A stretch of DNA of 64,000 nucleotides from Candidatus Heimdallarchaeum aukensis (GCA_021513695.1 CP084166.1:1504001-1568000); one strand, 5' to 3'; positions 3,280 through 46,295 are shown, counted from the stretch's first letter. The notes: generated from the letters alone by a model not told the origin. Program-made: numbers and translations.

Positions 3280-3293
3280 AAAGGGCGATTAAG

Positions 3294-5468: not shown

Positions 5469-5470
5469 AA

Positions 5471-7745: not shown

Positions 7746-7749
7746 TATA

Positions 7750-10559: not shown

Positions 10560-10562
10560 TAA

Positions 10563-13922: not shown

Positions 13923-14612
13923 TTATTTTAGAATAATTCTTGCATCTACAGGAAATATTCCATTAGAGTTTGCAATTAAAGGATTAATATCCATTTCTCC
14001 TATGTATTCTCTGTATTCCCATGCTAAGTTAGAAAGTTTAGACATAATTTCTGCAAGTTGTTCTCTATTAACTGGAGCTAATCCTCGAAAGCCATTAAGC
14101 AATTTTTGTGTTTTTATTTCGTCAATGGCTGATAATGCTTGTTCTTTAGAGCATGGGCACATTCTAAAAACAACATCCTTTAGAGCTTCTACAAAGATTC
14201 CACCTGGACCTACTAGTATTACTGGGCCAAATGTTTTATCGATTTGGCTTCCTATAATTAATTCAACTCCTTTTTCAACCATTTTTTCAACTAATATGCC
14301 TACAACTTCTCTCTCAGCAAAACGGTTCATATAATCGTTAAATGTTTTTTTTACTTCTTCTATTGTAGCAATACCAATTTTCACAGCTTGTTCATCAGTC
14401 TTATGCAAAACTTGTGGTGACATCACTTTCATTGCAACAGGCCCATTAAATTCGTTAAAGGCCATAATGGCTTCTTCTTCTGTTTTAACAAGTTTTGAAG
14501 GTGGTAAAGGTAAGTCTAACAATCTAAGAATTTCTTTTGCTTCATGTTCAAGTAGAGCTTTTCTATTTTCTGACTTAACTTTTTCAAATATTTCTTTAAT
14601 TTGTACGTTCAT
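13923..14612 (-). CDS. acetyl-CoA synthetase (ADP-forming) beta subunit, ATP-grasp domain
   Basis: ATP-grasp region LSEHEAKEIL...GPVAMKV.SP...HKTD.GGV. It sits directly downstream of the alpha subunit. Paralog of 37061-37753. Confidence 0.75.
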   Translation of the reverse strand: MNVQIKEIFEKVKSENRKALLEHEAKEILRLLDLPLPPSKLVKTEEEAIMAFNEFNGPVAMKVMSPQVLHKTDEQAVKIGIATIEEVKKTFNDYMNRFAEREVVGILVEKMVEKGVELIIGSQIDKTFGPVILVGPGGIFVEALKDVVFRMCPCSKEQALSAIDEIKTQKLLNGFRGLAPVNREQLAEIMSKLSNLAWEYREYIGEMDINPLIANSNGIFPVDARIILK

Positions 14613-14626
14613 CTTCCCATCTCCTT

Positions 14627-16048
14627 CTACAGATTTTTCCCTCTCTTCTTCAAGTAATTTGCATATTCAACAAGTCTTCCTACAGCTCTTATTGCACTCC
14701 CTGGGCTTTTAAAAACAGCAAAGTCTTCTTTTAGCAAAACATCATAAGCATAATCTGCTTCTTCTCCACCTATAAGCGCAGTTACGAAAGTTTTTTCTTT
14801 TCTGCTTGCTATCTTCCTTGTTATTTCTATATATTCATTAATGTCTAAGTTAGGGATACTTGGAATGCAGATATTAACAACTGCATCAACTTCAGGATCT
14901 TCATAGACTGCTTCCAAGGCTTTTTCATAATCCTTTGCATTTGCCGAACCAGTAATATCAATAGGATTAGTTGTAGAGTAATAGACTGGAAAGGTCTCAT
15001 CTAGTTTTTTCTGAATCTCTGGTGAAAATTTAGCTAGTTGTAACTTACAATCAGAAACCATGTCTGAAGCCATTACTCCTGCACCACCTCCATCCGTGAC
15101 AATAGCAACCCTATTTCCTTTCGGAAGAGGTTGGGTGGCAAATGAAATGACACAATCCTCCAACTCATCCCAAGTAATTACTCTTTGAAATCCTGCTTCT
15201 TTGAGGAGATCATCAACAATTGCGTCATCAGAAGATAATGCAGCAGTATGTGATGCGCCCGCTTTAGCACCTGCTTCTGTACGATTTGCTTTTATTCCAA
15301 GTACAGGTTTCTTTAAACTTACTTCTCTTAGAGTTTCCATGAATTTCCTGCCATTCTTGAAATCCTCAAGGTAAACAAGTATCATTTTTGTATCTTCATC
15401 ATCACCTAGATATTCAATGCAATCTGCTTCATTAATATCCGAAGCATTTCCATAAGAAATGAATCGAGCTATCCAATTTCCTGAACCCAGTCTAGCTAAC
15501 TGATCAATAAAAGCTGCACCAAAAGCTCCACTTTGCGTAAAAATTGATACATTTCCTGGTTTTGGTCTTTTTAGCTTGTTTACTGGTAAGAACATAGTAT
15601 CATATCCTAATACAGGAGAATATAACCCCAGACAATTAGGACCAATGATATTGATATTATAGGTTTTCATAATATCATTCATTCTATTCTGTATAGCAAC
15701 TCCTTCCTCGCCTATTTCGGCGAAACCCCCTGTAGTTACAATTACATTCTTTATGTTCTTTTTACCACATTCTTCCAGTGCTTGTGGAGCGAATTTTGCT
15801 GGAACAATAATAATTGCAGCATCAATTTCTTCTTCAATATCTAACACAGATTTGTATAATGTATATTCTTTACCTGCAAAAATGTGTGTTCCTCCACGAG
15901 GATTGACTAAAAATAATTTACCGGGAAAATCTTTAGCAAAATTCTCAGCAACAACTCCTCCTGGCTTCAGTAAATTTGTTGAAGCGCCAATTACACAGAA
16001 ACTTTTTGCATTAAAGAAATTAGCTATTCTATTGCTCATTCTTATCAT
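14627..16048 (-). CDS. acetyl-CoA synthetase (ADP-forming) alpha subunit, CoA-binding/succinyl-CoA-synthetase-like
   Basis: N-terminal FFNAKSFCVIGAS CoA-binding Rossmann fold, the NCLGLYSP motif, SGAFGAA and the His-containing GASHTAALS. Paralog of 37754-39187. Confidence 0.8.
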   Translation of the reverse strand: MIRMSNRIANFFNAKSFCVIGASTNLLKPGGVVAENFAKDFPGKLFLVNPRGGTHIFAGKEYTLYKSVLDIEEEIDAAIIIVPAKFAPQALEECGKKNIKNVIVTTGGFAEIGEEGVAIQNRMNDIMKTYNINIIGPNCLGLYSPVLGYDTMFLPVNKLKRPKPGNVSIFTQSGAFGAAFIDQLARLGSGNWIARFISYGNASDINEADCIEYLGDDEDTKMILVYLEDFKNGRKFMETLREVSLKKPVLGIKANRTEAGAKAGASHTAALSSDDAIVDDLLKEAGFQRVITWDELEDCVISFATQPLPKGNRVAIVTDGGGAGVMASDMVSDCKLQLAKFSPEIQKKLDETFPVYYSTTNPIDITGSANAKDYEKALEAVYEDPEVDAVVNICIPSIPNLDINEYIEITRKIASRKEKTFVTALIGGEEADYAYDVLLKEDFAVFKSPGSAIRAVGRLVEYANYLKKRGKNL

Positions 16049-23465: not shown

Positions 23466-24725
23466 CTACTCTAATTCTCCAATATCTGTTCTCCAATATA
23501 ATTTTCCTTTTATTTTTGTAATGTCTTCGATTACTTTTCTCTTTGCCTTAAAGATATCGTTTCCTACACCAAGAAGAGCAAGAGAACGACTAGTTGTTGT
23601 TCTTATTGTTCCATTTTCTCTATAAACAGAAGCATAAAAGAGATCAGATTTTAACGGATAGCTAATTGTTATTTTTTCATCTTTTAAAGGATTAATAGGG
23701 TATCCTTTTGGAACAAGATAATTACAAACAGTAGCTTTATTTTCAAAATTTACTTTTTTCAAGGATTGATCGATCATATTCTGATTGATGACATTGTAAT
23801 CATCTTTTAACAGTTTCAACACATTAATAGCTTCAGGGTCTCCAAAACGCGCATTAAATTCAATTAAGAAAACGTTTCTTTCTGATTTCATAAATTGTCC
23901 ATAAAGAACTCCAACATAAGGAATGTTCGTATGCTCCTTTAGTGCCTTGATGGTTTTTTTCAGAATATCAACAGCTTTTTCAACATCATTTTGTTTCAAG
24001 AAAGGTAAATGATGATCAGGAAGACTGTATGAGCCCATGCTCCCCGTATTTGGTCCTTTATCTCCCTCATATGCTCTTTTATAGTCTCTAACCAAAGGCA
24101 TTAATTGAATATTTTTTCCATCGGTAAATACCTGAAGAGAAAATTCTTTTCCTTTTACTTTTTTCTCAATTATTACTAATCCATCTTTCGCGATAGTTTG
24201 TTTAACAATCTCTTCTGCTTCAGAGTATGAAGAAAAATGGTCACCAAACACTTTAACTGCTTTTCCTCCAGTTAATCCATCAGGTTTAATAGCAATTTCC
24301 AAACCATTTTCTTTAACAAAAGACTCAAAATCACTAATAGTCTTACATATTTTGAAAACAGGGTTACCCTCTATTTCGTATTTCTCAAGTAAGTTTCTAG
24401 CAAATGATTTACTTGTTTCTATTTTAGCTACTTCTTGTCTAGGACTTGCAACTGGGATTTCTAACTTGTCCTCAATGTAATTAGTTAATCCAAAAGACAG
24501 AGGTAATTCTGGTCCTATTATTGCATAATCAATATTCTCAAATTTGGATAGTTTTTCAAAATTCGTCAGATTTCCTAGTATGAACTTTTCTGATATATCA
24601 GCTATTCCTGGATTTTCATAAGCCATGTATGAAAAAAGCTTATTTTCATTTTCCACTATTTTTTTGGCCATAGCATGTTCTCTGGCCCCATTACCAATTA
24701 ACAAAACTTTTTCTGCCATTTTCAT
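23466..24725 (-). CDS. purD: phosphoribosylamine-glycine ligase
   Basis: N-terminal VLLIGNGAREHAMA, ATP-grasp core, 419 aa. Last gene of the pur operon. Confidence 0.85.
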   Translation of the reverse strand: MKMAEKVLLIGNGAREHAMAKKIVENENKLFSYMAYENPGIADISEKFILGNLTNFEKLSKFENIDYAIIGPELPLSFGLTNYIEDKLEIPVASPRQEVAKIETSKSFARNLLEKYEIEGNPVFKICKTISDFESFVKENGLEIAIKPDGLTGGKAVKVFGDHFSSYSEAEEIVKQTIAKDGLVIIEKKVKGKEFSLQVFTDGKNIQLMPLVRDYKRAYEGDKGPNTGSMGSYSLPDHHLPFLKQNDVEKAVDILKKTIKALKEHTNIPYVGVLYGQFMKSERNVFLIEFNARFGDPEAINVLKLLKDDYNVINQNMIDQSLKKVNFENKATVCNYLVPKGYPINPLKDEKITISYPLKSDLFYASVYRENGTIRTTTSRSLALLGVGNDIFKAKRKVIEDITKIKGKLYWRTDIGELE

Positions 24726-26116
24726 TCCTCATAATGACTACGAGATTTTATCTCTCCATTTAGGTATTTTATTCTTAATTCTTCAGCATAAGAAGTTGGA
24801 TAACTACCTGAAAGACAAGCAGTACATAAATCAGAAAAACCAATTGATCTTTTTAATGCAACAATATCTTGATAATATAATCCGTCAACATTTAGGATTT
24901 TTTCTATTTCTGTTAGAGTATTCCCTGAAGCTATTAAGTCGTTGTCAGAGGGAATATCTATTCCATAATAACATGCAAATCTCACAGCGGGACAAGTGAT
25001 TGCGAGATAGATGTTGTTAACTCCCAACCTTCTTAAATCATTAACAATTTTTTTGCTAGTTAACCCTCTAACTACTGAATCATCGATTAGTAAAATATTT
25101 TTTCCTTTTATATATTTAGGAATGTAAAGATATTTTCTTTTAGCAGCTTTGCTTCGCTCTTTTTCGCTTTTCATTATGAAAGTGCGCTGAAGATAACGGT
25201 TTTTTATTATAGCTTCTCTTACTGGAATACCTAGTTCTTCAGAAAGACCTTGTGTTGCGGGTCTGGAAGTGTCTGGAACAGGAACAATGTAATCAATTTC
25301 TAAATTGTCACTTTTTATTCTTCGTGCTAATTCTTTTCCTAGATTAATTCTTGTATCATAAACCAATGTATTTTCTATAGTTGAACATGGATTAGCAAAA
25401 TAGACATATTCAAACATACAATGAGCATGATCTGCTTGAATTAGATGGCATTTGTCAATTTTTTCATTATCAAAAATTATTAATTCTCCAGGTCTAACAT
25501 CTTCAAAAGAAGTAATATCGATGTTTTGTAAAACAACGCTTTCAGATGAAACAATAGTAAGATTTTCAGATTTTCCAATAACTAAAGGTCTTATTCCCCT
25601 AGGATCCCTAAAAGTAAACATTGTTGTATCAAGGATTGCCACAATAGAATAGCTTCCATCTATTTTTTCCATAAATTCTTTTACAGCATTTTTTATACTC
25701 CCTTCGTAATAATCAATTAAAGAACCAAGGAATTCTGTTAAAAAAAGAGCGTCAGATTCATATTTTTTGTTTGTTAAAGTACTTAAATTAGTTATATTTC
25801 CGTTATGGACAACAAATAGGTTACCATACTTCGTTTTAACTTTAAATGGCTGAGCATAAAGTTCAACATTTGAGCTATCAGTTCTTGCTCCAAAAGTAGG
25901 ATAACGTGTTGAACCGATTAGTTTAGTTACTTCACTTTTTTCGTTGAGTTCAAGTAAATCAGGGTATCCATCAACTTTTTTTAAATTCACCTTTTTTTCA
26001 TTCTTATTTATCCAAGCTATTCCACTTGCATCTTGTCCTCTATGCGTTAGCATTTGTAGCAATATTTTTCCTTGTTCCAAAGTTGTTAACCCTGATATGC
26101 CTAATACTCCACACAT
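24722..26116 (-). CDS. purF: amidophosphoribosyltransferase
   Basis: N-terminal MCGVLGI (Ntn catalytic Cys) and the PRTase domain motif ILLIDDSVVRGLT. Confidence 0.9.
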   Translation of the reverse strand: MCGVLGISGLTTLEQGKILLQMLTHRGQDASGIAWINKNEKKVNLKKVDGYPDLLELNEKSEVTKLIGSTRYPTFGARTDSSNVELYAQPFKVKTKYGNLFVVHNGNITNLSTLTNKKYESDALFLTEFLGSLIDYYEGSIKNAVKEFMEKIDGSYSIVAILDTTMFTFRDPRGIRPLVIGKSENLTIVSSESVVLQNIDITSFEDVRPGELIIFDNEKIDKCHLIQADHAHCMFEYVYFANPCSTIENTLVYDTRINLGKELARRIKSDNLEIDYIVPVPDTSRPATQGLSEELGIPVREAIIKNRYLQRTFIMKSEKERSKAAKRKYLYIPKYIKGKNILLIDDSVVRGLTSKKIVNDLRRLGVNNIYLAITCPAVRFACYYGIDIPSDNDLIASGNTLTEIEKILNVDGLYYQDIVALKRSIGFSDLCTACLSGSYPTSYAEELRIKYLNGEIKSRSHYEE

Positions 26117-26117
26117 T

Positions 26118-26723
26118 TTAATTCACAATCCTTACCTTTCTCCCTTCAACAATTAGTTTCCCCTCAGAAAACAATCTTATTGCTTTTGGCAAGAGAATAT
26201 GTTCTTTTTCTAGTATTTTTTTGGCTAGAGTTTCTTCTGTATCACTATCATCTACTAGCACTACCTCTTGTAAAATAATTGGGCCATGATCTACTTTTTC
26301 ATCCACAAAATGCACTGTGCACCCAGTTATTTTTGCTCCATAGTCTAAAGCTTGCTTTTGAGCATTTATTCCTGGAAATGAAGGTAATAAAGAAGGATGA
26401 ATGTTAATTATTTTGTTGCTAAATTTGTTAACAAAAAAGGGAGAGAGAATTCTCATAAAACCTGCTAAGACTACTAAATCAATGTTATTTTTTTCTAGGG
26501 TCTCAGCTAGTTGTTTGTCATATGTTTCACGATTTTGATTTCTATGGGGAGGTAGAACAATAGTTTTTTTCCCATATCTCTTTGCTATTTCTAAACCTTT
26601 AGCATCTGGGATGTTAGAGACAACTAAGGAAACAACTGCATTACCCAGTTCTTTTTGTTTTTCCTTTTCAAGAATTGCTTCAAGGTTACTTCCTCTTCCA
26701 GAAATTAGCACAGCAACATTCAT
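26118..26723 (-). CDS. purN: phosphoribosylglycinamide formyltransferase
   Basis: MNVAVLISGRGSNLEAI, the HPSLLP motif, 201 aa. Confidence 0.85.
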   Translation of the reverse strand: MNVAVLISGRGSNLEAILEKEKQKELGNAVVSLVVSNIPDAKGLEIAKRYGKKTIVLPPHRNQNRETYDKQLAETLEKNNIDLVVLAGFMRILSPFFVNKFSNKIINIHPSLLPSFPGINAQKQALDYGAKITGCTVHFVDEKVDHGPIILQEVVLVDDSDTEETLAKKILEKEHILLPKAIRLFSEGKLIVEGRKVRIVN

Positions 26724-26732
26724 CTTTAATTT

Positions 26733-29063
26733 TCACCGTTTTAAAAATACATTATAGTGATCTATGATTACATTCGGTTCTTCAATAACTTCACCTAGAA
26801 TGTGAGTCTCGAAGTATTTATTTAATAAATAGAGCACTTTCTCTTCGTTCTCTTTTGGTACTATAACAATAAAACCTATCCCCATGTTAAATGTTGAAAA
26901 CATCTCGTTGTAGGAGATTTTTCCAATTCTTTTTATCTCTTCAAAAATGGCTGGGGGGTTCGGAAAATGCTTGAGGTTAAAGCCATAATTAGATAATCTG
27001 AAAAGTTTCCTAAATCCTCCTCCAGTAATATGTGCTAAACCATGAACTTCATAGCTATCCAATAAAGCTTCAATAGATTCAGTATATATTCTTGTGGGTT
27101 TAAGTAACTCATCTTTTAGTTTTACACCTCCAGGGATAACAGAATCGAGAGTATATTTGCTGAAAAGGACTTTGCGTGCAAGAGTAAACCCATTAGAATG
27201 TATTCCGCTACTTGAAATACCTAATATACTATCTCCAACTTTAATTTTAGATCCATCTATGATTTTATTTAAGTGAATTATTCCTAATGCTGTTCCTGCG
27301 ATGTCAAATGAATTTTCTGATTCTTTCAACATTTCGGGGATTGTAGCTAGTTCTCCTCCTAACAGAGGAATCTTTGAAATCTCACACCCTTTATATATTC
27401 CTTTAATTATCTCTTCTATTCGTTCTTTTGAAAGCTTTGCAACTGCAAGGTAATCTACAAAAGCTTTTGGCAAGATACCCATAGCAAGCAGGTCATTTAC
27501 ATTCATAGCCACACAATCGATTCCTATAGTATCATATTTTCCTGCTTGTTCTGCAACTATTATCTTTGTTCCTACACCATCGGTTGATAAAGCAATACCA
27601 TGATCTCCAAATTTTATTAAGTTTGCATAGTGTCCTTCTTTCCCTATAACATTCCCAAAAGAAAATGATTTTTGTACATAATCATTTATCATTTTCAAGA
27701 CTTCTGATTCTACATCTAAATCTAATCCTGATTCTGCATAAGAAGATGGAGGAGAAAATTCTTTTTTCTCTTTATTCAGTGATGCAATAAATTTTTCTAC
27801 AATTTCAGGAGCTAACCCGATATAGTTAACTGGATCAAGAATAAAGTCAATTTTTTCATCATCAAGGTATTTCTTTACTATTTCATTCTCTTTAACAATC
27901 TCTTTGAAATTAGGGAAGTTAGACAATTGTTTTAGTAATTCATGTGCTTTCTGTCTTCCTATATGTGGAGTTAAATGAAGCATCAAGTTTTCTGAACATT
28001 GTGCTCCTTCTTTCAGGTATAAGTTGTGCTTGATTTTCTCTTCATTTAAGTAAAGACTGTCCAATATTTTATTCATCTCTAGTATTAAGAAATGTGTTAA
28101 CATAGAATTTTCAAAGAGTAATATTCTTTCAGAACTTGAGTTGGTAAGATCTCTTTCATGCTCTAAACAAATATTCTCCATTGCAACATTAATACTTGCC
28201 CTAATATTTCGTGCTAAACCTGAAATTCTTTCACTTTTTTCAGGATTTCTTTTTTGTGGCATAGTAGAGGAGCCTACTTGACTTTTAACAAATGACTCTC
28301 GTACTTCATCAATTTCAGTTCTTTGTAAATTTCTTATTTCTCTAGCGAAGTGGTCTAAAACTGTTGCAATCAAACCTAAAGCTTGTATGTATTTGGCATA
28401 AATTACTCTTGAGACAACCTGTGTTGTTACTGGTTGTTTTTCAAGCCCAAGTTTGTTTAACACGATTTCTTCAATTTTTTCTGTCCCATATGACGCATAA
28501 GTTCCTACTGCCCCAGACATTTTTCCATAGGCAACTTTTGCATTTTCTAGAGTTTTTTTTGCCATTAATAGTTCATTAAGAAAATTAGCGAATTTCAGCC
28601 CATAAGTAGTAGGAACAGCATGTTGTCCATGAGTACGTCCTATACAGACAAGATTCTTATATTTCATGGACAATTGTTTTAATTTCTTAATTGTAATTTC
28701 TAAATCGTCTAAAATTCTTTTTTTTGCTTCTTTTAACTGTAATCCCCTAACAGTATCTTGAATATCATAAGATGTTGCTCCTAAATGAATGTACCCACCA
28801 TATTCTCCACATTGTTCAGAAATTGCGAGTACAACACTCATTAAATCATGATGAACTTCTTTTTCAATTTCCTTCACACGTTCTAATTTCACATATTTTG
28901 GGGTACATCTTTCTTCAATTATTGAAATTGCTTCTTCTGGTATTTTACCTACTTCATAATTTGCTTGAGCTAGTGTTTTTTCTACTAACAACTGGAATTC
29001 TAGTTTCTTTTCTTCAGAAAACAGCTCTATTATTGAAGTCTTATAACGCTCAATCTCAAGCAC
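26733..29063 (-). CDS. purBM: bifunctional adenylosuccinate lyase / AIR synthetase (PurB-PurM fusion)
   Basis: Residues ~1-445 match PurB: [26 protein letters not shown], and the fumarate-lyase signature [11 protein letters not shown]. Residues ~450-776 match PurM: [21 protein letters not shown] and [14 protein letters not shown]. It is a single uninterrupted frame. Confidence 0.8.
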
Positions 29064-29445
29064 TTTTCTTCACCCCGAGTATCCTCATTGCCAAATAAGC
29101 TGCATTAGTACCATTATCTATTCCAACTGTAGCTACAGGAACACCTTTAGGCATTTGGACTATAGACAATAAAGCATCTAAACCATTTAAAGCTGCAGAA
29201 ACGGGTACACCAATAACTGGTTTATCAGTAATGGAAGCAACAACACCAGGTAAAGCAGCTGCTAAACCAGCGATACAAATGAATATTTCAGCACTAGATT
29301 CAATTACTGCTTGTACAAGTTTTTCATGGTCTCTATGTGCTGATAAATAAAGAACTTTATACTCTACATTATTAGCATCCAAAACAGTTGTTACTTTTTC
29401 AACAATTTTACTATCGCTTTTACTTCCTGCAATTACATCAATCAT
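29056..29445 (-). CDS. purE: N5-CAIR mutase / AIR carboxylase catalytic subunit
   Basis: VIAGSKSD...SAHRDH...PVIGVPV, the PurE fold. Confidence 0.8.
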
Positions 29446-29460
29446 TTTTTTCTACTCCTT

Positions 29461-31644
29461 CTATTCCATATATTTTACAATTGCATTTTTCCAATTTGAA
29501 TGTAATTGTTCTATATCAATTGATACAAGATTTTCTATTTCTAAAACAGGTTCTTTAGTAGTATGTCCTACTACTCCATAATCCACTCCAATTGTTTCTA
29601 ACAAATTTACCACTTGCTTAAGTTTTTCATTTGAGACTTCTATGATGAATCTTGATGATGTTTCAGAGAATAGCTTATGTCTAGTTTCCACTCCTTCATC
29701 AGAAGGAATATTTTCAAGGTTAATTTTTGCGCCTATTTTATTTTTGAACATCATTTCTCCAAGAGCGACTATAAATCCACCATTTGAAATATCATGACAA
29801 CTTTCAATTAGTTTCTGTTTATTTAACTGTGTTATTGCTTCAATTGACTTTTTCTCTCTCTTCTCATCATAAGTAGGTACGTCACTCATAATACAATTGA
29901 AACAATATCGTAAATATTCTGAACCACCAAGTTCTTTTCCTGTCTTTCCAATTTGAATAATTTTTGATTCTTGGTTGACAAAATTATTAGCTAATAGATC
30001 GTCTGGAGAATCGAATACTCCAATTATTCCTATAGTTGGTGTTGGATTGATTCTTTCTCTTTTCCCTTCCTTATTCACAGTTTCATTGTAAAGAGACACA
30101 TTTCCTCCTATAACTGGAAGCTTAAAATCATTTGAAAATCTACCTAAACCTTTTATTGATTCTACAAATTGCCAATACGAGTCAGGTTTTTCAGGATTAC
30201 CAAAATTCAAACAATCAACAACTGCATAAGGTTTGGCTCCTACAGCAACAATATTTCTCTGAGCTTCAGCTGCAACATTAGCTGTTCCGGTATATGGAGA
30301 ACAATAAACAGCAAATGAATTACTGTCTAAAGTTAAAGCGATATATTTTCCATTGTCTAATCTTAAAACCGCTGCATCGGCTCCAGCTTGGATTACTGTT
30401 TGAGTTTGAACATGTTGATCATATTGTTCATAAATCCATTCTTTACTACCAACATTTGGAGATTCAAATATTTTTAGTATTTCATCTTTAATATTTCCTT
30501 GATTTGGGATAGTATATTCCTTTTTAGATCGAATATAATCGGGTATAGAGAATTCTCTTTCTGGTTCAGGAAATCCGTTTATTATTAGATCTACTGGCAG
30601 ATCAATTATCTTCTCTCCATTGTAAAAAGCAATATAGTGGCTATTATTTGTTACTTCACCAATTATACTATATGTTAAAAGATCATACTTTTTGAGTACT
30701 TCTTCAACAGCAGCTATATTTTTAGGAGACACTACAGCTAACATTCTTTCTTGTGATTCAGAAATTAAAATTTCCCAAGGTTTCATATCATATTCTCTTA
30801 AAGGAACATCTTCAAGCCTTATTAGAGCTCCTGTATTCCCCTTTTCAGTCATTTCAGAGATTGCACAACTTAATCCTCCACCCCCTAAATCCTGGAGACC
30901 AGAAAGAAGACCTTTTTCTACTAATTCAAGTGTAGCATCAATTAGGGCTTTTTCCATTAGGGGGTCTCCTATTTGTACAGCTGGTCTATCACTCTCACTT
31001 TTATCATCTAAATCCTTAGATGCAAATGAGACTCCATGTATTCCATCTCTCCCGGTTCTGGCGCCATATAGAAGGAAAAAGTGTCCCGGGGTTGATGCTA
31101 TACTGCGAACTACTTTATCTTTTTTTACTACTCCAATACACATTGCATTAACAAGACAATTATTTTCAAAAACTGGATCAAATTCAGCTTCTCCCCCAAC
31201 AGTCGGAATACCTACGCAATTTCCATAAGATGAAATTCCTCTAACAACATTCTCAAATAAGTTCTTCGAATGATCGGATGTTAGATTTCCAAAACGTATT
31301 GAATCCAGTAAAGCAATAGGTTTACAACCTTGAGAAATAATATCTCTTATAATTCCTCCTACTCCTGTTGCTGCACCTTGAAAAGGTTCAATTGCACTAG
31401 GATGATTGTGACTTTCTAACCCTAATCCTATCAGCAAATCGTCTCCAATATCTATTAAACCTGCGCCTTCACCTATTCCTAAAGCTAGATAGGGGGCAGT
31501 GGTTTTAAATAAAGAAAACCAACGTTTTGAACTTTTATATGATATATGCTCACTCCACATTGCACCTATTACATTAAGTTCCGCAAAGTTTGGTTCTCTT
31601 CCTAACTCTTGAATCAACTTTGAATATTCTTCATTTGATATCAT
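29461..31644 (-). CDS. purL: FGAM synthase II (large subunit)
   Basis: ESHNHPSAIEPFQGAATGVGGIIRDI and a duplicated PurM-like fold, 727 aa. Confidence 0.9.
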   Translation of the reverse strand: MISNEEYSKLIQELGREPNFAELNVIGAMWSEHISYKSSKRWFSLFKTTAPYLALGIGEGAGLIDIGDDLLIGLGLESHNHPSAIEPFQGAATGVGGIIRDIISQGCKPIALLDSIRFGNLTSDHSKNLFENVVRGISSYGNCVGIPTVGGEAEFDPVFENNCLVNAMCIGVVKKDKVVRSIASTPGHFFLLYGARTGRDGIHGVSFASKDLDDKSESDRPAVQIGDPLMEKALIDATLELVEKGLLSGLQDLGGGGLSCAISEMTEKGNTGALIRLEDVPLREYDMKPWEILISESQERMLAVVSPKNIAAVEEVLKKYDLLTYSIIGEVTNNSHYIAFYNGEKIIDLPVDLIINGFPEPEREFSIPDYIRSKKEYTIPNQGNIKDEILKIFESPNVGSKEWIYEQYDQHVQTQTVIQAGADAAVLRLDNGKYIALTLDSNSFAVYCSPYTGTANVAAEAQRNIVAVGAKPYAVVDCLNFGNPEKPDSYWQFVESIKGLGRFSNDFKLPVIGGNVSLYNETVNKEGKRERINPTPTIGIIGVFDSPDDLLANNFVNQESKIIQIGKTGKELGGSEYLRYCFNCIMSDVPTYDEKREKKSIEAITQLNKQKLIESCHDISNGGFIVALGEMMFKNKIGAKINLENIPSDEGVETRHKLFSETSSRFIIEVSNEKLKQVVNLLETIGVDYGVVGHTTKEPVLEIENLVSIDIEQLHSNWKNAIVKYME

Positions 31645-32336
31645 TTTAATTCCTCAATCAAGTTCTGAAAAATAGTTCTACCATCCTCTGAACCTAAATA
31701 ATTAAAACTTGCACGCTCAGGGTGGGGCATCAAACCTAAGACATTTCCTTCTTTATTCGTTATTCCTGCAATATTATCTACAGAACCGTTAGGGTTACTG
31801 TCTTCAGAAATAACACCTTTTTCATCACAATACTGTAAAGCGATTTGATTTTTTTTCTTAAGTTCTATAATTTGTGAATTTGTAGCATAATAATTACCAT
31901 CAAAGTGAGCAATGGGGATTCTCCATATTTTGTTTTCTGAATTCCTCAGTAAAACACTGTTGCTTTTATTAATTTTTACATACACCCATCTAGAAACAAA
32001 TTTGGTTGAACGGTTCGTTGTTAAAACTCCAGGTAGAATTCCCGTCTCACAGAGAATTTGAAAACCGTTACATATTCCTATAACAAAATTCCCTTGCTCT
32101 ACAAATTTAGGCAATTCTTGCATTATTGCTGTTTTTGCTGCAATAACTCCTGGTCTTAGGTAATCCCCAAAAGAAAATCCTCCTGCAATGATTAGAGCAT
32201 TTAAATCTTTCAATTTATCTGCATCCTTTTCGTAAATCAGTACACCTTCGACACCAAATGATGAGAGAGCTCTTAAAACATCTTGTTCATTGTTTGTTCC
32301 TGGAAATTTTGTTACCCCTATTTTCATTATCATCAT
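31641..32336 (-). CDS. purQ: FGAM synthase I (glutaminase subunit)
   Basis: Class-I GATase with IAGGFSFGDY and the catalytic Cys context GICNGFQIL. Confidence 0.85.
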   Translation of the reverse strand: MMIMKIGVTKFPGTNNEQDVLRALSSFGVEGVLIYEKDADKLKDLNALIIAGGFSFGDYLRPGVIAAKTAIMQELPKFVEQGNFVIGICNGFQILCETGILPGVLTTNRSTKFVSRWVYVKINKSNSVLLRNSENKIWRIPIAHFDGNYYATNSQIIELKKKNQIALQYCDEKGVISEDSNPNGSVDNIAGITNKEGNVLGLMPHPERASFNYLGSEDGRTIFQNLIEELK

Positions 32337-32339
32337 CCT

Positions 32340-33329
32340 TTATTCAAAAGAGAAGTCTATTGAGTAAGTTTCAATTAGAGGATTTGCCAGAATTTCATTA
32401 CTTATTGTTTCTGTGACATCCCAAAGTTTTGACCCAGGAGCAGATGTAAAACTAATAACAACGCTTTTTCCGATATTTACTTTTGATACCTGCTTGTAAC
32501 CAAGACGTAATAAAGAGCGAATGGTTATATCTCCAGCAGGATCTAGAACTGATTCTTTCAAATCGATTGTAACTCTAACTTTAGTCTTTAACTCTATTTT
32601 TGGAAGCTCTTTAATTTGTTCTAATCTAAGAGCAATGTCATTATAATGGTCTACAACGTTACCTAGATCTTTTCTATATCTATCTTTGTCTTTTATTTCC
32701 CCAGAACTCATTTCCCATAGACGCATCGTATCAGCAGATATCTCATCAGCTAAAATGAGTTTGCCATCTGTTGTTCTTCCAAATTCTAATTTAAAATCAA
32801 CTAAAGTTAAACCAATTTTCTTGAACACTTCTCTTAAAATATAGTTTACTGCTAATGTTACAGCTTTTATAATTATTTTTTCTTTTTCATTAATCCAACC
32901 TAATCTTATTGCTACTTCTTCAGTAACCAAAGGGTCATGAAGTTCATCATTTTTATAAAAGAGTTCAACGATAGGTTTCTCAAAGGAAATACCTTTCTCT
33001 ACACCATATCTTCTACAGAAGCTTCCTGCTGTAATATTCCTACAAACTGATTCAACAGGAATAATTTCCACTTTTTTACAAATGAGTTCATTTGATGATT
33101 CTTGTTTCAAATAATGTGTTTCAACCCCATAATGGTGAAGAACTTCAAACAATATCCGTGATATTTTACAATTAGCTTCTCCCTTTCCTTTTAGTTCATC
33201 AATTTTGACACCATCAAATGCCGATATCGAATTTCTAAATACAATCTTAACTTTTTCATCATCAAGAATTATAACATCTTTTGCTTTTCCAGAATATAAT
33301 TGTTCCAACACAAACCACCATTGCACCAT
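32340..33329 (-). CDS. purCS: SAICAR synthetase fused to PurS (PurC-PurS)
   Basis: N-terminal ~240 aa match PurC: LYSGKAKDV, SAFDG, LVDFKLEFG and LADEISADTMRLW. The C-terminal ~85 aa match PurS: KVRVTIDLKESVLDPAGDITIRSLLRLGY..V..V.IGKSVVISF. Confidence 0.8.
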   Translation of the reverse strand: MVQWWFVLEQLYSGKAKDVIILDDEKVKIVFRNSISAFDGVKIDELKGKGEANCKISRILFEVLHHYGVETHYLKQESSNELICKKVEIIPVESVCRNITAGSFCRRYGVEKGISFEKPIVELFYKNDELHDPLVTEEVAIRLGWINEKEKIIIKAVTLAVNYILREVFKKIGLTLVDFKLEFGRTTDGKLILADEISADTMRLWEMSSGEIKDKDRYRKDLGNVVDHYNDIALRLEQIKELPKIELKTKVRVTIDLKESVLDPAGDITIRSLLRLGYKQVSKVNIGKSVVISFTSAPGSKLWDVTETISNEILANPLIETYSIDFSFE

Positions 33330-33549
33330 ATTGCAAATTTATTTGATGTTTAATTTGATACGAAAATTTTATTAGATTAATAAATGTTGCGGAATACAAC
33401 GAAAAAATAGCATAAAATGGTTAATAGCGAGAATAGAGCGTTAAAAAAACAGCCATCTAATGAGGAAGTGTTTTGCACCATTATGCAACACCCAATGTTG
33501 TTGCTTAAAAAAATTTAACAATGAGTATATTTTTATTGTTCTGAGTGCA
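33330..33549. promoter_or_regulatory. divergent pur operon / regulator intergenic region with two TTGCACCAT(A/T)(T/A)TGCAA palindromic sites
   Basis: ttgcaccatattgcaa at 33321-33336 overlaps the purCS start codon. ttgcaccattatgcaa at 33473-33488 is its near-identical partner. AT-rich TATA-like tracts lie between them. Confidence 0.4.
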
Positions 33550-34329
33550 ATGAGTTCATTAGATAGTTACTTTGATGCTAAAGAAAAGCTTATGGTTCTC
33601 AATCTACTAAGAATGGTTTTTAAAAAATTTACAACTCTTGAAGATCTTAAAACATATCTCGATAATAAAGGAGTGGAAATTTCAATAGCAAATTTATCTA
33701 GATATATTAATGGAAAAGCTCTTCCAAAATCAAAGTTAAAAGATAAATTATTAGAAGTGCTTGTTGGGAATAGAGAACTTGGTTTGGACATCGACTTACT
33801 TACACACAAGCATATTGAGATTTGGCCTAGCGAGTATGGGATAGCTGTCAACAATGGTCATTTGTTGAATGACTCAAAAGCTCTTAATGCGATATTGTTT
33901 ATGGCAATTTATAAACAGTTTATCCCAACTGATGTTGATAAAGTTATTACAGCAGAAGTTGATGGTATTGTAATTGCTAGTACTTTAGCTCATTTGCTAA
34001 ACATTGATTGTGTATATGCTAGAAAGAAAAAGCCTACAGGTTCATTTCGCTGTTTATCAGAGGATATTCAATCTGCAACAGCAAGTAGAATCGAAACTCT
34101 TTATTTTCCTGAGAAATATATAAGAAAAAATGAAAGGGTTATCATTATTGATGATATAATCCGTTCAGGTTCTACACAAAAAGCTTTAGTAAATCTTGTA
34201 AGAAAGGCAGGAGGAATCCCAGTTAAAGTAATTATTCTTATTGGTATTGGCTCTCATTGGGAGAAGATTACAAAATTAAGTAATATACCTTTTAAAGCCT
34301 TGACAGTTGTACCTCGGTCTGAAACCTAA
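33550..34329 (+). CDS. putative purine-pathway transcriptional regulator: N-terminal HTH domain plus type-I phosphoribosyltransferase (PRPP-binding) domain
   Basis: HTH segment EDLKTYLDNKGVEISIANLSRYINGKA. PRPP-binding loop VIIIDDIIRSGST. The ORF track extends the start to 33460, but the Cys-rich leader MRKCFAPLCNTQCCC looks non-native, so ATG 33550 (MSSLDSYF) is preferred. Confidence 0.6.
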   Translation: MSSLDSYFDAKEKLMVLNLLRMVFKKFTTLEDLKTYLDNKGVEISIANLSRYINGKALPKSKLKDKLLEVLVGNRELGLDIDLLTHKHIEIWPSEYGIAVNNGHLLNDSKALNAILFMAIYKQFIPTDVDKVITAEVDGIVIASTLAHLLNIDCVYARKKKPTGSFRCLSEDIQSATASRIETLYFPEKYIRKNERVIIIDDIIRSGSTQKALVNLVRKAGGIPVKVIILIGIGSHWEKITKLSNIPFKALTVVPRSET

Positions 34330-37060: not shown

Positions 37061-37753
37061 TTATTCAAGTATTATTCTTGCATCTATTGCTTTTAAGCCC
37101 TCTTCAGTAACCATTACGGGATTTAAGTCCATTTCTTTAATTTCAGGATGGTCTTCAACAAGCTTTGAGATATTTAGAAGTAGAGACTTTAAATCATCCA
37201 TTTTCAAAGCAGGCATTCCTCTAAAACCTTCTAACATCTTTCTTCCTTTTATTTCACGGTACATTTCTTCTACATCATTTTCAGAGATTGGAATTAACCT
37301 AAAAGAAACATCCTTGTAAACTTCTACGAAAATTCCTCCAATGCCAAAAGCAATCATCTTTCCAAATTGAGGGTCGGTAGTTTGGCCTATCAACACTTCA
37401 ACACCCGAGACCATCTCTTCTATTGAGAAACCCTCTATTTTCGCTCCAGGATGGTAAGATGTTACCGATTCCATCATTTCTTCATATGCCTTCTTCAATT
37501 CTGAATCTGATTTTATACCTACCTTTACTCCTCCAGCTTCTGTTTTGTGAATAATATCCTCTGAAATTACTTTAAGGACTACAGGATAGCCGATTTCGTT
37601 TGCTTTTACTATGCACTCATCTAAATCTTTTGCTACTGCAATTTTGTTTAGAGGAACTCCAGCTAGTTCCATAACCTTTCTTGATTCTTCATAGGTTAGG
37701 ACATTACGTCCTTGACCCTTTACTTCTTCAAATATTTTATTAATTTCATTCAT
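37061..37753 (-). CDS. acetyl-CoA synthetase (ADP-forming) beta subunit, paralog 2
   Basis: ATP-grasp motifs collinear with 13923-14612 (LTYEESRKVMELAGVP...GYPVVLKVISEDIIHKTEAGGVK). Confidence 0.75.
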   Translation of the reverse strand: MNEINKIFEEVKGQGRNVLTYEESRKVMELAGVPLNKIAVAKDLDECIVKANEIGYPVVLKVISEDIIHKTEAGGVKVGIKSDSELKKAYEEMMESVTSYHPGAKIEGFSIEEMVSGVEVLIGQTTDPQFGKMIAFGIGGIFVEVYKDVSFRLIPISENDVEEMYREIKGRKMLEGFRGMPALKMDDLKSLLLNISKLVEDHPEIKEMDLNPVMVTEEGLKAIDARIILE

Positions 37754-39187
37754 TTATTTACACCCCTCATATCTTCTTGTTAAACTATCGACATTTTCTC
37801 TTCTGAGGAATTTTCCTCTATCAACTAATGCTTTCATCGCAATAACTGCTCTCTCAGCAGAAGGCAAGGTTGGTATACCTTTGTAGTTCAACCATTTGAA
37901 AGCTTCTAAATGGTCCATTCCAACAAAAGCACAAACTATAGGTTTTTTAGTTGTTGTGCTAACTTGATAAATTGCATCAGCAACTTTATCAGGAACAGCT
38001 CTTGACCCTGGATTAAATAAGGGACAAACACCATCAACTTCTGGAGCATCAACCAAAATTTGCAATACTTTTCTAAACCTAACATGATCTGCGTCACCGA
38101 TAATATCAACAGGGTTTTGTTTACTCCAAGTTGGAGGACAGACTTCATTTATTTTGGCAACTGTTTCTTTGCTTAATGTTGCTAGCTTCAACCCCACGTC
38201 TGCTGCCTTATCTGCTGAAATGACTATTATTCCTCCAGCATTACTCAAGATTGCGATATTTTCTCCATCAGGTGGAAGTTGAGTGCTAAATGCTTGAGCA
38301 ACATCAAATAATTCAAACCATTCTTTTGCTCGATATACCCCAGCTTGTTTAAAAGCAGCCTCATAACTTGCATCCTGTGTACTAATGGAACCAGTGTGAC
38401 TTGAAGCAGCAGCTGCTCCGTATGAAGTCCGCCCAGATTTTAAAACTACAATAGGTTGTCTCCAAGTAATTTTTTTAGCTTCTTCAAAGAATTTTCGTCC
38501 ATCTGGCATGCTTTCTACATAGAGTCCGATACATTTCGTTTTATAATCGTCAGCAAAATACTCCAGCAAATCAGCATCATCTACATCTGCTTTGTTTCCA
38601 ATACTAATGAAGTGAGAGTAACCTATTCCTACTTTATTGCTGTGCAGTATTGCTGAAATACAGAGAGCTCCTGATTGACTAATGAAAGCGAGAGTGCCTT
38701 TTTGTGGGGCTTCATCAGCGAATGTACCATTGAATTGAATATGCGGATTATAAATACCCAGACAATTTGGTCCTACAATTCGCATATTATAACTTCTAGC
38801 TATCTTTACTATTTCTTCTTCTGCATCTTTTTTACCAGTTTCTCCAAAACCCGCTGTAATAATAACTGCTGCTTTTACTCCTTTTTTTCCACATTCATGA
38901 AGAACAGAGATAACAAATTGGGGAGGAACAACAATAATTGCTTGATCTACCTCATCAGGCACATCTAAAATGGACTTATATGCTTTAAATCCCAGTATCT
39001 CGTCTGCTTTAGGATGAACTGGAAAGATTTTACCTTGAAATCCCTTTTTTCTATCAGTTTCACCCACTAAATAATGAACTATATTATCCATAATCCTGTT
39101 TCCTATTTTATCAGGAGTGGGAGTTGCACCTATAATAGCTACTGATTTTGGTTCAAAAAGAGCTTTTATTCCAGGATCGGTATTCAA
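37754..39187 (-). CDS. acetyl-CoA synthetase (ADP-forming) alpha subunit, paralog 2
   Basis: CoA-binding N-terminus KSVAIIGATPTPDKIG, NCLGIYNP, SGALCISA and the His loop AASSHTGSIS. Confidence 0.8.
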   Translation of the reverse strand: MNTDPGIKALFEPKSVAIIGATPTPDKIGNRIMDNIVHYLVGETDRKKGFQGKIFPVHPKADEILGFKAYKSILDVPDEVDQAIIVVPPQFVISVLHECGKKGVKAAVIITAGFGETGKKDAEEEIVKIARSYNMRIVGPNCLGIYNPHIQFNGTFADEAPQKGTLAFISQSGALCISAILHSNKVGIGYSHFISIGNKADVDDADLLEYFADDYKTKCIGLYVESMPDGRKFFEEAKKITWRQPIVVLKSGRTSYGAAAASSHTGSISTQDASYEAAFKQAGVYRAKEWFELFDVAQAFSTQLPPDGENIAILSNAGGIIVISADKAADVGLKLATLSKETVAKINEVCPPTWSKQNPVDIIGDADHVRFRKVLQILVDAPEVDGVCPLFNPGSRAVPDKVADAIYQVSTTTKKPIVCAFVGMDHLEAFKWLNYKGIPTLPSAERAVIAMKALVDRGKFLRRENVDSLTRRYEGCK

Positions 39188-43882: not shown

Positions 43883-45037
43883 ATGAATTCAAAAAAGAAT
43901 GATCCACTTGAAGAAAAAGATATAGTTGTTAAACAGACTCTTACAAGTGGACCTCTATTTAGTGAATTACTTGAACGATATAATAAAGAGAACATAACTA
44001 TTGGTGTTTTAGGTTCTCATTCTGCTTTAGATGTTTTAGATGGAGCAAAAAGAGAAGGATTTAGAACCTTAGTTGTCTGTGAAAAAGGGAGAGAAGAGCC
44101 ATATATCCGATTTAAAAGGATAATAGATGAGATTATTACTCTGGACCATTTTTCTGATATTTTTGATATTCAAGATGATTTAATCAATAAGAACACAATA
44201 TTTGTTCCAAACAGGAGTTTTACTGTTTACTGTGGAGCAAATAGAATAGAAAGAGGATTTAGAGTTCCAATTTTTGGAAGTAGAAATCTATTAGGAGTAG
44301 AAGAAAGACTAGGACCACACAATTATTACCAGATTTTGGATCAAGCAACTATAAAATATCCACGAGTTTATAATTCTCCTGATGAGATTGATGGCCCTGT
44401 AATAGTAAAAATGCCTCATGCAAAACAAAGAGTTGAAAGAGGATTTTTCATTGCCAAAAATAAAGAGGATTTCGAAAAAGAGTTTGAAAAAAGAGTCATA
44501 GAGGGAATAATAAAAATAGACGATTTAAAAGAAGCTTCTATAGAAGAGTTTGTATCGGGTGTTCCATTCAACTTCAACTTTTTCTATTCACCACTCTTTG
44601 ATAGAGTAGAATTAATGGGTATTGATAGGAGATTTGTAACTGACTTAGATGGAATTGTTCGAATCCCAGCAGAACAACAACTTAAGTTAGGATTAAAAGA
44701 AGAGATGAAAGAGATAGGTAATTTTGCTGTTACTCTTCGAGAATCAATGCTTAGATATGTTTTTCCAATGGGTGATTATTTTGTTGAAGCAACAAAAAAA
44801 CTCTATCCTCCAGGAATAATAGGGCCCTTTGCACTACAAACAATGGTAACAAAGGATTATGAATTCAAAGTTTTTGATGTAAGTATGAGAATGGGGGGAG
44901 GAACAAATTCATTCATGGGAATTGGTAGTAATTATTCCTCAATATACTGGGGAGAACCAGTTTCAGCTGGAAGGAGAGTGGCAATGGAAATTAAATTTGC
45001 TGTAAAACAACAAAGGTTAGCTTACATAGTCACTTAA
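43883..45037 (+). CDS. purP: 5-formaminoimidazole-4-carboxamide ribonucleotide (FAICAR) synthetase, archaeal ATP-grasp PurP
   Basis: N-terminal IGVLGSHSALDVLDGAKREGFRT, the ATP-grasp core, and C-terminal DVSMRMGGGTN. This is an archaeal-specific family. Confidence 0.8.
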   Translation: MNSKKNDPLEEKDIVVKQTLTSGPLFSELLERYNKENITIGVLGSHSALDVLDGAKREGFRTLVVCEKGREEPYIRFKRIIDEIITLDHFSDIFDIQDDLINKNTIFVPNRSFTVYCGANRIERGFRVPIFGSRNLLGVEERLGPHNYYQILDQATIKYPRVYNSPDEIDGPVIVKMPHAKQRVERGFFIAKNKEDFEKEFEKRVIEGIIKIDDLKEASIEEFVSGVPFNFNFFYSPLFDRVELMGIDRRFVTDLDGIVRIPAEQQLKLGLKEEMKEIGNFAVTLRESMLRYVFPMGDYFVEATKKLYPPGIIGPFALQTMVTKDYEFKVFDVSMRMGGGTNSFMGIGSNYSSIYWGEPVSAGRRVAMEIKFAVKQQRLAYIVT

Positions 45038-45299
45038 TTGCAGAAAAATGCAATAATTGTTTTTTACCATTTTAAAAAAACAAGAAAGATTTATACAATC
45101 ACCTATTTTTCTCATATTTTTGTCATCGTCAGACTCAGAGAAAAGTTTGTATTTGCAAAATGTTGTAAAGATGTTTTTATGGAAAATCTTTGAAAAAGGC
45201 TATAAAAAAAGCGAAAATGATAAGAATGAGCAAAATTGAGTTAGAAAAATAACTAAAAAAATATATACCATTCATTTTCGGTTGGTTTGAGGACCAATC

Positions 45300-46295
45300 A
45301 TGATAATTAGTACTGTTGGAAGCCATTCTGCTCTCCAAATTCTTTATGGAGCGAAAAAAGAGTCATTTTCAACAAAGGTTTACTGTTTGAAAGGCAAAGA
45401 ACAACTCTATAAAAGATATCCAGTTGCAGACCAAATAATTACATTAGATAGTTATAGTGATCTTTTAGATAGGAAATATGAGGGAGAAGAAATTTTTGTT
45501 CCTCATGGTTCTATTATTGCCACTTTAGGAAAAAGAGCACTTGACATTCCTATCCCAATGATAGGAAACAGAGAAGGAATGTATTGGGAGATGGTAAGAG
45601 AAAAAAATTTAGAATTACTAAACAAAGCAAAAATTAGAACACCTTATACATATAAACCAGAAGAAATTGACCGATTATGTATTGTTAAGTTTCCAGGAGC
45701 AAAAGGAGGAGATGGTTACTTTTTATGTTCAAGTTATCAAGAGTTTGAAGGAAAAATTGATACGATAATCAAAGAAAAAAAAGTCTCAGAGGAAGAAGCT
45801 TCGAATGCTCAAATTCAGGAATACATTGTGGGCGTAACAATGTATCCTCACTATTTTTACTCTCCAATCTTCGATAGAGTGGAGCTATTAGGAATCGATC
45901 GTAGATATGAAACCAATGTTGATGCATTAGGAAGACTCTCACAGTCATTCTCTAAAATTTATCCAACTTATACAGTAGTTGGGAATCAACCGTTAATCGC
46001 AAGAGAATCACTTCTACACAAAATATTAGATTACGGAGATTTGCTCCGAGAAGTGTCAGTAGACTCTTTTCATCCAGGTTTAATTGGTCCCTACTGTATA
46101 GAGATGGCATTAACTGATAAGGAAATTGTCGCTTTTGAATTTACCAGTAGAATTGTCGCTGGAACAAGCTTATACATCTCAGGTTCCTTATACTCAAAGA
46201 TATTATTTGATGAAGAAATGAGCATGGGAAGAAGAATTGCAAGAGAAATAAAACTCGCTAAGGAACAAAATAGATTAGATGATATTATTTCTTAA
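45300..46295 (+). CDS. PurP paralog (FAICAR synthetase-like ATP-grasp)
   Basis: [23 protein letters not shown] and motifs collinear with purP. Second PurP copies are common in archaea. Confidence 0.75.

Follow-up and report, generated by a model that had tools for sequence, protein, structure and literature searches.

The purine biosynthesis (pur) genes of the Asgard archaeon Candidatus Heimdallarchaeum aukensis lie together at positions 23466-33329 of the 64,000-nucleotide (nt) stretch analyzed here (GCA_021513695.1, CP084166.1:1504001-1568000; hereafter the window), and one of them encodes both adenylosuccinate lyase (PurB) and aminoimidazole ribonucleotide (AIR) synthetase (PurM) in a single open reading frame (ORF). 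The ORF listing shows eight minus-strand ORFs, co-directional and tightly packed, whose junctions in transcription order are a 3-nt gap, a 4-nt overlap, a 15-nt gap, an 8-nt overlap, a 9-nt gap, a 1-nt gap, and a 4-nt overlap. Pfam and NCBIfam both give the order PurC+PurS, PurQ, PurL, PurE, PurB+PurM, PurN, PurF, and PurD. The gene order and the overlapping or abutting stops and starts described in a first-pass annotation of this DNA are thus confirmed, the largest gap being 15 nt and the largest overlap 8 nt. Judged from the genes alone, the cluster is an operon: the genes are co-directional, their spacing runs from −8 to +15 nt, and their order is kept in four related loci (L003, L005, L006, and L093; homologous loci and proteins are given as L and P numbers). 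The same annotation had counted ten activities, which is an overstatement: the ten proteins or domains provide steps 1 to 8 of de novo inosine monophosphate (IMP) synthesis, together with the second role of PurB in adenosine monophosphate (AMP) synthesis, and these are eight steps because PurL, PurQ, and PurS together form one enzyme. The G+C content of the window is 29-36%.

The ORF at 26733-29063 (minus strand) encodes 776 amino acids (aa) in one uninterrupted frame, with PurB N-terminal and PurM C-terminal. It starts with GTG, where its homologs have ATG. The first-pass annotation had reported a complete PurB and a complete PurM in this frame, and the search results bear this out, with four Pfam domains, Lyase_1 (residues 13-287, 156 bits), ADSL_C (356-425, 49 bits), AIRS (480-596, 86 bits), and AIRS_C (608-766, 93 bits), and with both of the motifs that it had quoted, the adenylosuccinate lyase signature loop (GSSxMPxKxNP, residues 264-274) and STDGVGTKI (residues 493-501). 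The PurB half scores 432.8 bits against TIGR00928, exceeding the equivalog cut-off of 326.2, and the PurM half scores 357.2 bits against TIGR00878 (cut-off 236.35), covering model positions 2-331 of 332. Alternative NCBIfam families are all far under their own cut-offs for both halves. The best Protein Data Bank (PDB) match of the PurM half is the PurM structure 9jzy_A (310 bits, query residues 441-772). No solved structure and no NCBIfam model was found to span both halves.

In the PurB half, the motifs HHD (residues 71-73) and RTHGQHA (143-149) and the signature loop all line up with those of the PDB entry 1C3U, and their residues are invariant across an alignment of 20 fused homologs. In this family, the serine of the signature loop is catalytic, and the conserved histidines are the equivalents of H68 and H141 of the Thermotoga maritima enzyme. 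In the PurM half, the motifs DGVGTK, GIDxVAMxVNDL, GGE, HSNG, and H-x-TGGG are all found. The invariant positions in the same 20-sequence alignment are D495-G498, G514-D516, V518-M520, N523-L525, G569-E571, H622-G625, H678, T680, and G681; the DGVG core of DGVGTK is thus invariant, and FNMGIG is mostly so. The identities of the window protein to its fused relatives in L007, L005, and L008 are 96%, 79%, and 70% for PurB and 97%, 75%, and 71% for PurM, and since these values are nearly equal, both halves appear to be similarly constrained. In an AlphaFold2 (AF2) monomer model, the mean predicted local distance difference test score (pLDDT) is 85 and both halves are confident. The pLDDT falls below 50 at linker residues 432-435. 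In the PurB half, a number of scattered loops also have low values, the main one being the mobile catalytic loop 249-274. The predicted template modeling score (pTM) of 0.54 points to two modules without a fixed relative orientation. The coordinates of the two modules and of the other features are collected in the table.

Features of the purine operon and related genes in the window (FGAM, formylglycinamidine ribonucleotide; GAR, glycinamide ribonucleotide; GMP, guanosine monophosphate; SAICAR, succinylaminoimidazolecarboxamide ribonucleotide)
Feature	Coordinates	Strand	Evidence
purC-purS fusion (SAICAR synthetase + PurS subunit of FGAM synthetase), operon gene 1	32340..33329	-	Pfam SAICAR_synt 10-233, PurS 250-325; NCBIfam purC 222.7 bits (cut-off 189.9), PurS TIGR00302 54.2 bits (cut-off 39)
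purQ (FGAM synthetase glutaminase subunit)	31641..32336	-	GATase_5; TIGR01737 287.5 bits, above cut-off
purL (FGAM synthetase large subunit)	29461..31644	-	FGAR-AT_linker + two AIRS/AIRS_C; PurL NF002290 900 bits
purE, short (129 aa), class-I-like SAHR motif	29056..29445	-	AIRC; TIGR01162 144.6 bits, slightly below cut-off 149.6
PurB module of the fusion (adenylosuccinate lyase), residues 1-432	27768..29063	-	Lyase_1 + ADSL_C; TIGR00928
Junction/linker, residues ~433-440 (EFSPPSSY region); site of the purB stop/purM start in split relatives	27744..27767	-	Direct DNA reading and DNA alignment
PurM module of the fusion (AIR synthetase), residues 441-776 and stop codon	26733..27743	-	AIRS + AIRS_C; TIGR00878
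purN (GAR formyltransferase)	26118..26723	-	Formyl_trans_N; TIGR00639 227 bits, above cut-off
purF (amidophosphoribosyltransferase)	24722..26116	-	GATase_7 + Pribosyltran; TIGR01134 334 bits, slightly below cut-off 350
purD (GAR synthetase), final operon gene	23466..24725	-	GARS_N/A/C; TIGR00877 367 bits, above cut-off
Divergent phosphoribosyltransferase-like gene, 289 aa, N-terminal extension	33460..34329	+	Pribosyltran
Two PurP paralogs (formate-dependent step 9), ~10 kb outside the operon	43883..46295	+	DUF1246 + DUF1297
GMP synthase, after the PurP pair	46311-47819	+	GMP_synt_C/GATase

The same architecture is found in other genomes. In a search of 5.8 billion proteins, with the fused matches grouped in clusters of 90% identity, PurB-PurM fused proteins of 765-801 aa carrying all four domains formed about 20 clusters at 41-97% identity; the closest, from Ca. 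Heimdallarchaeum endolithica PR6 (P0001; locus L007, CP084167.1), is 97% identical, which makes the window organism a near relative of that species within the Asgard family Heimdallarchaeaceae. The alignment of the fused homologs is collinear throughout, running from the PurB C-terminal helix (Y-x-GLA) through the linker to the PurM N terminus (P-x-x-YAEAGVDI). The length of the linker differs between them and is about 20-25 residues greater in one group. Six-frame ORF analysis gave a single fused ORF in L005 and L006 (two Joint Genome Institute metagenomes), L007, L008 (Heimdallarchaeota 18H4_34), and L087-L089, and a fused frame is also present in L092 and in P0001-P0019, P0068, P0241, and P0255. 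The exact window protein was called on a 69-kb contig from a separate Logan assembly (SRR15988954), and the junction DNA of the window and L007 differs by several substitutions that leave the frame unchanged. The PurB-PurM fusion is real and is not a frameshift artifact.

The origin of the fusion can be read from its split relatives. The nearest of these, L003 (GCA_964534625.1), has the identical operon (purCS-Q-L-E-B-M-N-F-D), in which purB (436 aa, 70% identity) and purM (347 aa, 72% identity) are separate. Its junction reads AAG AAT GAG TGA, with the ATG of purM inside, so that the two genes overlap by 8 nt (ATGAGTGA) and lie in different frames. The spacer that separates a conserved leucine codon from a conserved tyrosine codon measures 46 nt in L003, as against 36 nt in the window; the net change is 1 modulo 3, and therefore the purB stop is gone and purM has joined the frame of purB. 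In the more basal L093, the operon is again the same and occupies the same place on the chromosome (thioredoxin, phosphoribosyltransferase, and Metallophos genes on one side and TPR and NifU genes on the other), with a gap of 11 nt between purB and purM. In a concatenated PurB+PurM tree built by neighbor joining (NJ), which is not likelihood based, from 769 columns with 300 bootstrap replicates, the window clade of seven fused sequences is monophyletic (bootstrap 69%), L003 is its sister (bootstrap 90% for the fused sequences plus L003), and the split lineages branch successively below the fused clade, first L003, then P0032+P0149, and then L093. We propose that purE, purB, and purM were neighbors in the operon and that purB and purM merged through the change in junction length, giving a bifunctional gene that consists of a complete PurB, a short flexible linker (roughly 8-15 residues), and a complete PurM. 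The simplest reading would be a single fusion in the stem of a Heimdallarchaeum-level clade, kept through about 30% protein divergence. Taken together, the gene is very probably a genuine bifunctional purB-purM gene that arose from adjacent operon genes in a Heimdallarchaeum-type Asgard archaeon.

Several points weigh against this proposal. A single fusion event in the window clade is supported only moderately (69% bootstrap, NJ), and in an NJ tree of PurB alone the split L003 falls among the fused sequences. Given that the fused state also occurs in more distant clades, an ancient fusion followed by several fissions may be the actual history. As to function, it is conservation that predicts both halves to be active when fused. 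PurB usually forms homotetramers whose active sites are shared between subunits, PurM forms homodimers, and a linker of about 10 residues would have to accommodate both assemblies.

The distribution of the fusion shows that it is rare yet recurrent. Among the best 150 matches in an exhaustive search of 1.84 billion protein representatives at 50% identity, only three are fused (P0016, P0241, and P0255), and in a genome scan with one genome per GTDB species, limited to 600 pattern matches, two of the best 80 loci carry the fusion (L007 and L008). In NJ trees built for each half, with the fused proteins added by hand to the PurM tree, the fused forms occupy about six to eight separate positions, with split forms and PurE-PurM fusions interspersed between them. 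Three of them (P0068, P0241, and P0255) are very distant from the window protein in both halves. Fusion and/or fission has clearly taken place repeatedly, and on these NJ trees the change in the deeper clades may have gone in either direction. The arrangement of the genes around the fusion also varies. In L092, the genes are arranged as purS-Q-L-E-purBM, purN-F-D is divergent, and PurS is a stand-alone protein of 93 aa.

The adjacency of purB and purM is much broader than the fusion, because the matches to both halves elsewhere are separate ORFs. The tblastn matches to both halves in Promethearchaeota, Aenigmatarchaeota, and Micrarchaeota had been candidates for further fusions, and ORF analysis showed them to be separate genes. 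They lie next to each other in L014, L085, L010, L019, and L032, whereas in L053 some 600 nt come between them. In three of these loci, all from Promethearchaeota (L010 7336-8517, L019 7329-8513, and L032 7343-8560), purB is immediately followed by a divergent PurM-like ORF of ~395 aa, which is far below the purM cut-off (104 versus 236 bits) and may be a diverged PurM or a paralog of other function.

Two loci lack part of the set. L001 (GCA_030603365.1) carries a lone purB (8001-9290, 68% identical) between Metallophos and TPR-NifU-NTPase genes, at the position occupied by the whole 10-kb operon in the window and in L093, and the pur genes flanking it seem to have been deleted on both sides. 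L090 (GCA_030668875.1, Heimdallarchaeaceae) has an operon without purB in which purE and purM overlap. A general loss of PurM or of the de novo pathway in relatives with a stand-alone PurB, an idea that came from L001, was ruled out by this purB-less operon; stand-alone PurM at 59-72% identity, which also counts against it, is common in Heimdallarchaeaceae. Such a loss may have occurred in L001's own genome.

Outside the Asgard archaea, the best matches to the PurB half are proteins of the protists Andalucia godoyi and Anaeramoeba ignava in EukProt (P0112 and P0116-P0118), with 47-50% identity. These values are at or slightly above the best of those for other archaeal genomes (39-51%, mostly 40-48%), and human-type ADSL structures, at about 112 bits, are much more remote. 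An Asgard-eukaryote link, horizontal transfer, and contamination are all possible explanations.

PurB catalyzes step 8 on the way to IMP and also the final reaction that yields AMP, and PurM catalyzes step 5. The two halves of the fusion would, as far as the sequence tells, act as independent catalytic modules supplied in fixed 1:1 amounts. The benefit of joining them is probably modest, for example in co-expression or co-assembly, because steps 5 and 8 are not consecutive, close relatives do without the fusion, and fused and split states alternate. It could instead be argued that the operon encodes a scaffold for metabolic channeling, in which PurC-PurS links step 7 with step 4 and PurB-PurM links step 8 with step 5, so that labile FGAM, AIR, and carboxyaminoimidazole ribonucleotide (CAIR) would be passed on as in a purinosome; in a variant of this idea, a PurB tetramer bearing four PurM modules that need to dimerize could drive higher-order assembly. 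Two fusions of non-consecutive steps do occur in the one operon, Asgard archaea repeatedly have PurM joined C-terminally to another purine enzyme (to PurE in PurE-PurM, and to PurB in several clades), the fusion has been maintained across about 30% divergence, and the eukaryotic GARS-AIRS-GART protein is a textbook precedent for the fusion of PurM with enzymes of non-consecutive steps. However, the PurM and PurB steps themselves do not follow one another, near relatives with an identical operon are unfused and the alternation of fused and split states suggests weak selection, and the AF2 model with its pTM of 0.54 has no interface between the halves. We therefore consider a channeling scaffold unlikely. 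A stronger version, in which PurC-PurS and PurB-PurM would jointly be the cross-links of an archaeal purinosome, with four PurM modules mounted on each PurB tetramer and PurC dimers sitting on PurLQS to give a particle or polymer for steps 4 to 8, is decidedly speculative and improbable. If it were true, the Asgard lineage would possess a genetically hard-wired counterpart of the eukaryotic purinosome that channels unstable intermediates.

It is also conceivable that one half of the protein is degenerate or non-catalytic, for example a regulatory or structural PurM-like appendage or a PurB paralog for another substrate, with the real enzyme encoded elsewhere. The window is 64 kb of a genome that may hold a second purB or purM, and the PurB superfamily has diverged to other substrates, with sub-threshold NCBIfam matches to XcbD and muconate cycloisomerase being seen here. 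Both halves, however, exceed the purB and purM equivalog cut-offs while the alternatives stay far below theirs, the signature and catalytic residues are invariant, and the two halves are equally conserved in the fused relatives. In addition, the fusion fills the exact purB and purM slots of the split operons, and the Pfam scan, which reached about 50.6 kb into the window, turned up no further purB or purM. A degenerate half is therefore very unlikely. The frameshift artifact that the first-pass annotation had kept as an alternative would be a homopolymer error in the A-rich junction (gagaaaaaagaa) that erased a stop or frameshift between two genes; with purB and purM of the nearest split relative in different frames and 8 nt apart, a single indel could mimic a fusion. 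This artifact is refuted and retains practically no probability, as the junction differs from that of L003 by a net 10 nt and not 1, is in frame in the same way in Ca. H. endolithica (complete genome, 97% identity), belongs to a protein that recurs exactly in the separate Logan assembly, and has counterparts with varied linker lengths in fused ORFs from many independent metagenomes.

The remaining genes complete the picture of purine metabolism in the window. The 3′ end of purE overlaps the start of purB-purM by 8 nt, and purE is a separate ORF in a different frame. The second conserved loop of the window PurE reads AGLAAALPG; class I PurE enzymes carry a histidine in the corresponding loop. 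Of the 28 other window ORFs scanned with Pfam (to about 50.6 kb), none matched PurO, PurH, or PurK, and an Rfam scan of the whole window gave no matches to riboswitches or other RNAs. The product of the divergent gene upstream of the operon gives a PRK08558-like match of 149 bits (below the cut-off of 184) and a weak match to the Bacillus subtilis PurR model, and may serve in salvage or act as a regulator like PurR; a Pribosyltran gene also adjoins the pur operon in L003, L090, L092, and L093. The trio of two PurP genes and GMP synthase lies directly upstream of the pur operon in L090, and in the window it is separated from the operon by about 9.5 kb of unrelated genes (thioredoxin, an acyl-CoA synthetase pair, a NosD-like gene, and urocanase). 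That acyl-CoA synthetase pair is one of two pairs of ADP-forming subunits (Succ_CoA_lig/CoA_binding and ATP-grasp_5) within 25 kb, at 13923-16048 and 37061-39187, both on the minus strand. A co-directional cluster on the plus strand (2278-12947) encodes a MoxR-type AAA ATPase (2278-3279) and a DUF58/VWA protein (7750-8691), together with large ORFs that lack a Pfam match (3294-5468, 5471-6154, 6138-7745, and 10563-12947).

Multifunctional purine enzymes are textbook cases of evolution by gene fusion, and this locus offers a clean natural series within one archaeal family for the evolution of fusion, co-expression, and possibly channeling. The series includes purE and purM adjacent, purE and purM fused, purE, purB, and purM split, purE next to a fused purB-purM, and a lone purB at the same site, and the fusion event is readable at the nucleotide level. 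With its fused and split members, the series would allow one to ask directly whether assembly or flux changes when a tetrameric enzyme is tethered to a dimeric partner. There is also a practical consequence. Public databases already hold PurB-PurM proteins from related Asgard archaea, under the name of one enzyme only (adenylosuccinate lyase at NCBI and cyclo-ligase in UniRef), so that an automated reconstruction of pathways in Asgard genomes might erroneously report PurM or PurB to be absent. The refuting condition that the first-pass annotation had set on database searches thus applies in part, in that the architecture is real but not unique to the window.

Compared with stand-alone PurB, represented by the T. 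maritima adenylosuccinate lyase (PDB 1C3U; TIGR00928), residues 1-432 of the window protein align with positions 2-428 of 431 and share Lyase_1, ADSL_C, GSSxMPxKxNP, and RTHGxHA, but the C terminus runs on without a stop into PurM. Residues 441-776 likewise match stand-alone PurM (PDB 9jzy, Escherichia coli 1CLI; TIGR00878) over the full length, with the YAExGxD start motif, DGVGTK, and AIRS/AIRS_C, whereas the window PurM lacks a start codon of its own and is tethered to PurB at its N terminus. In known PurM structures, the N terminus belongs to the domain that forms the dimer interface. The split purB and purM of the sister Heimdallarchaeaceae (L003 and L093) have the same gene order, the same chromosomal neighborhood, and 65-72% identity in both halves, and differ in being separate genes, with the 8-nt overlap or the 11-nt gap in place of the lost stop and merged frames of the window.

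The purine fusions described so far include GARS-AIRS-GART, PurC-PurE (PAICS), the large PurL, and PurH. A 2011 review of archaeal purine synthesis gives only PurN-PurH1, PurE-PurE′, and CofG-PurC (PMC3261824). We found no description of a PurB-PurM fusion in the literature, which agrees with the view of the first-pass annotation that it is not a standard architecture. The annotation's own list of known fusions was, in contrast, not supported, since PurE-PurM (AIRC + AIRS + AIRS_C; P0159-P0240) is the dominant form of PurM among the other Asgard matches; those with names are mostly from Thorarchaeota, with single Lokiarchaeota, Promethearchaeota, Hodarchaeota, and Sifarchaeia labels. Nor is the PurC-PurS fusion, which was part of the layout described there, unusual: it occurs widely in archaea of the Heimdall, Thor, and Sif groups and also in the bacterium Acetomicrobium hydrogeniformans (P0509).

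The Asgard PurE-PurM protein (~477 aa) resembles the window fusion in that PurM is C-terminal and is fused to the gene directly upstream, with about 50% identity between the PurM halves. Its partner, however, is PurE, which catalyzes the consecutive step 6, while purE in the window is a separate ORF upstream of purB-purM. From the two fusions together, it therefore appears that PurM has repeatedly been captured at the C terminus of whichever gene sits upstream. In eukaryotic GARS-AIRS-GART (PurD-PurM-PurN), PurM is also fused to enzymes of non-consecutive steps, as is textbook knowledge, but the partners and their order are different, purD and purN are separate in the window, and neither a GARS nor a Formyl_trans_N match was found in the fusion ORF; there is no evidence for a shared origin. 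PurB-PurC (P0281, 690 aa) has PurB at the N terminus of a bifunctional purine enzyme, as in the window, and differs in its partner, which is PurC of the consecutive step 7 and not PurM. The other uncommon purine fusions met in the representative library (P0281, P0257, P0322, and P0340) are PurB-PurC of 690 aa and PurM-PurM-PurN of ~880 aa. Set against these systems, the PurB-PurM architecture is rare, apparently undescribed, and mechanistically unsurprising, and it looks like an ordinary gene fusion of two ordinary family members.

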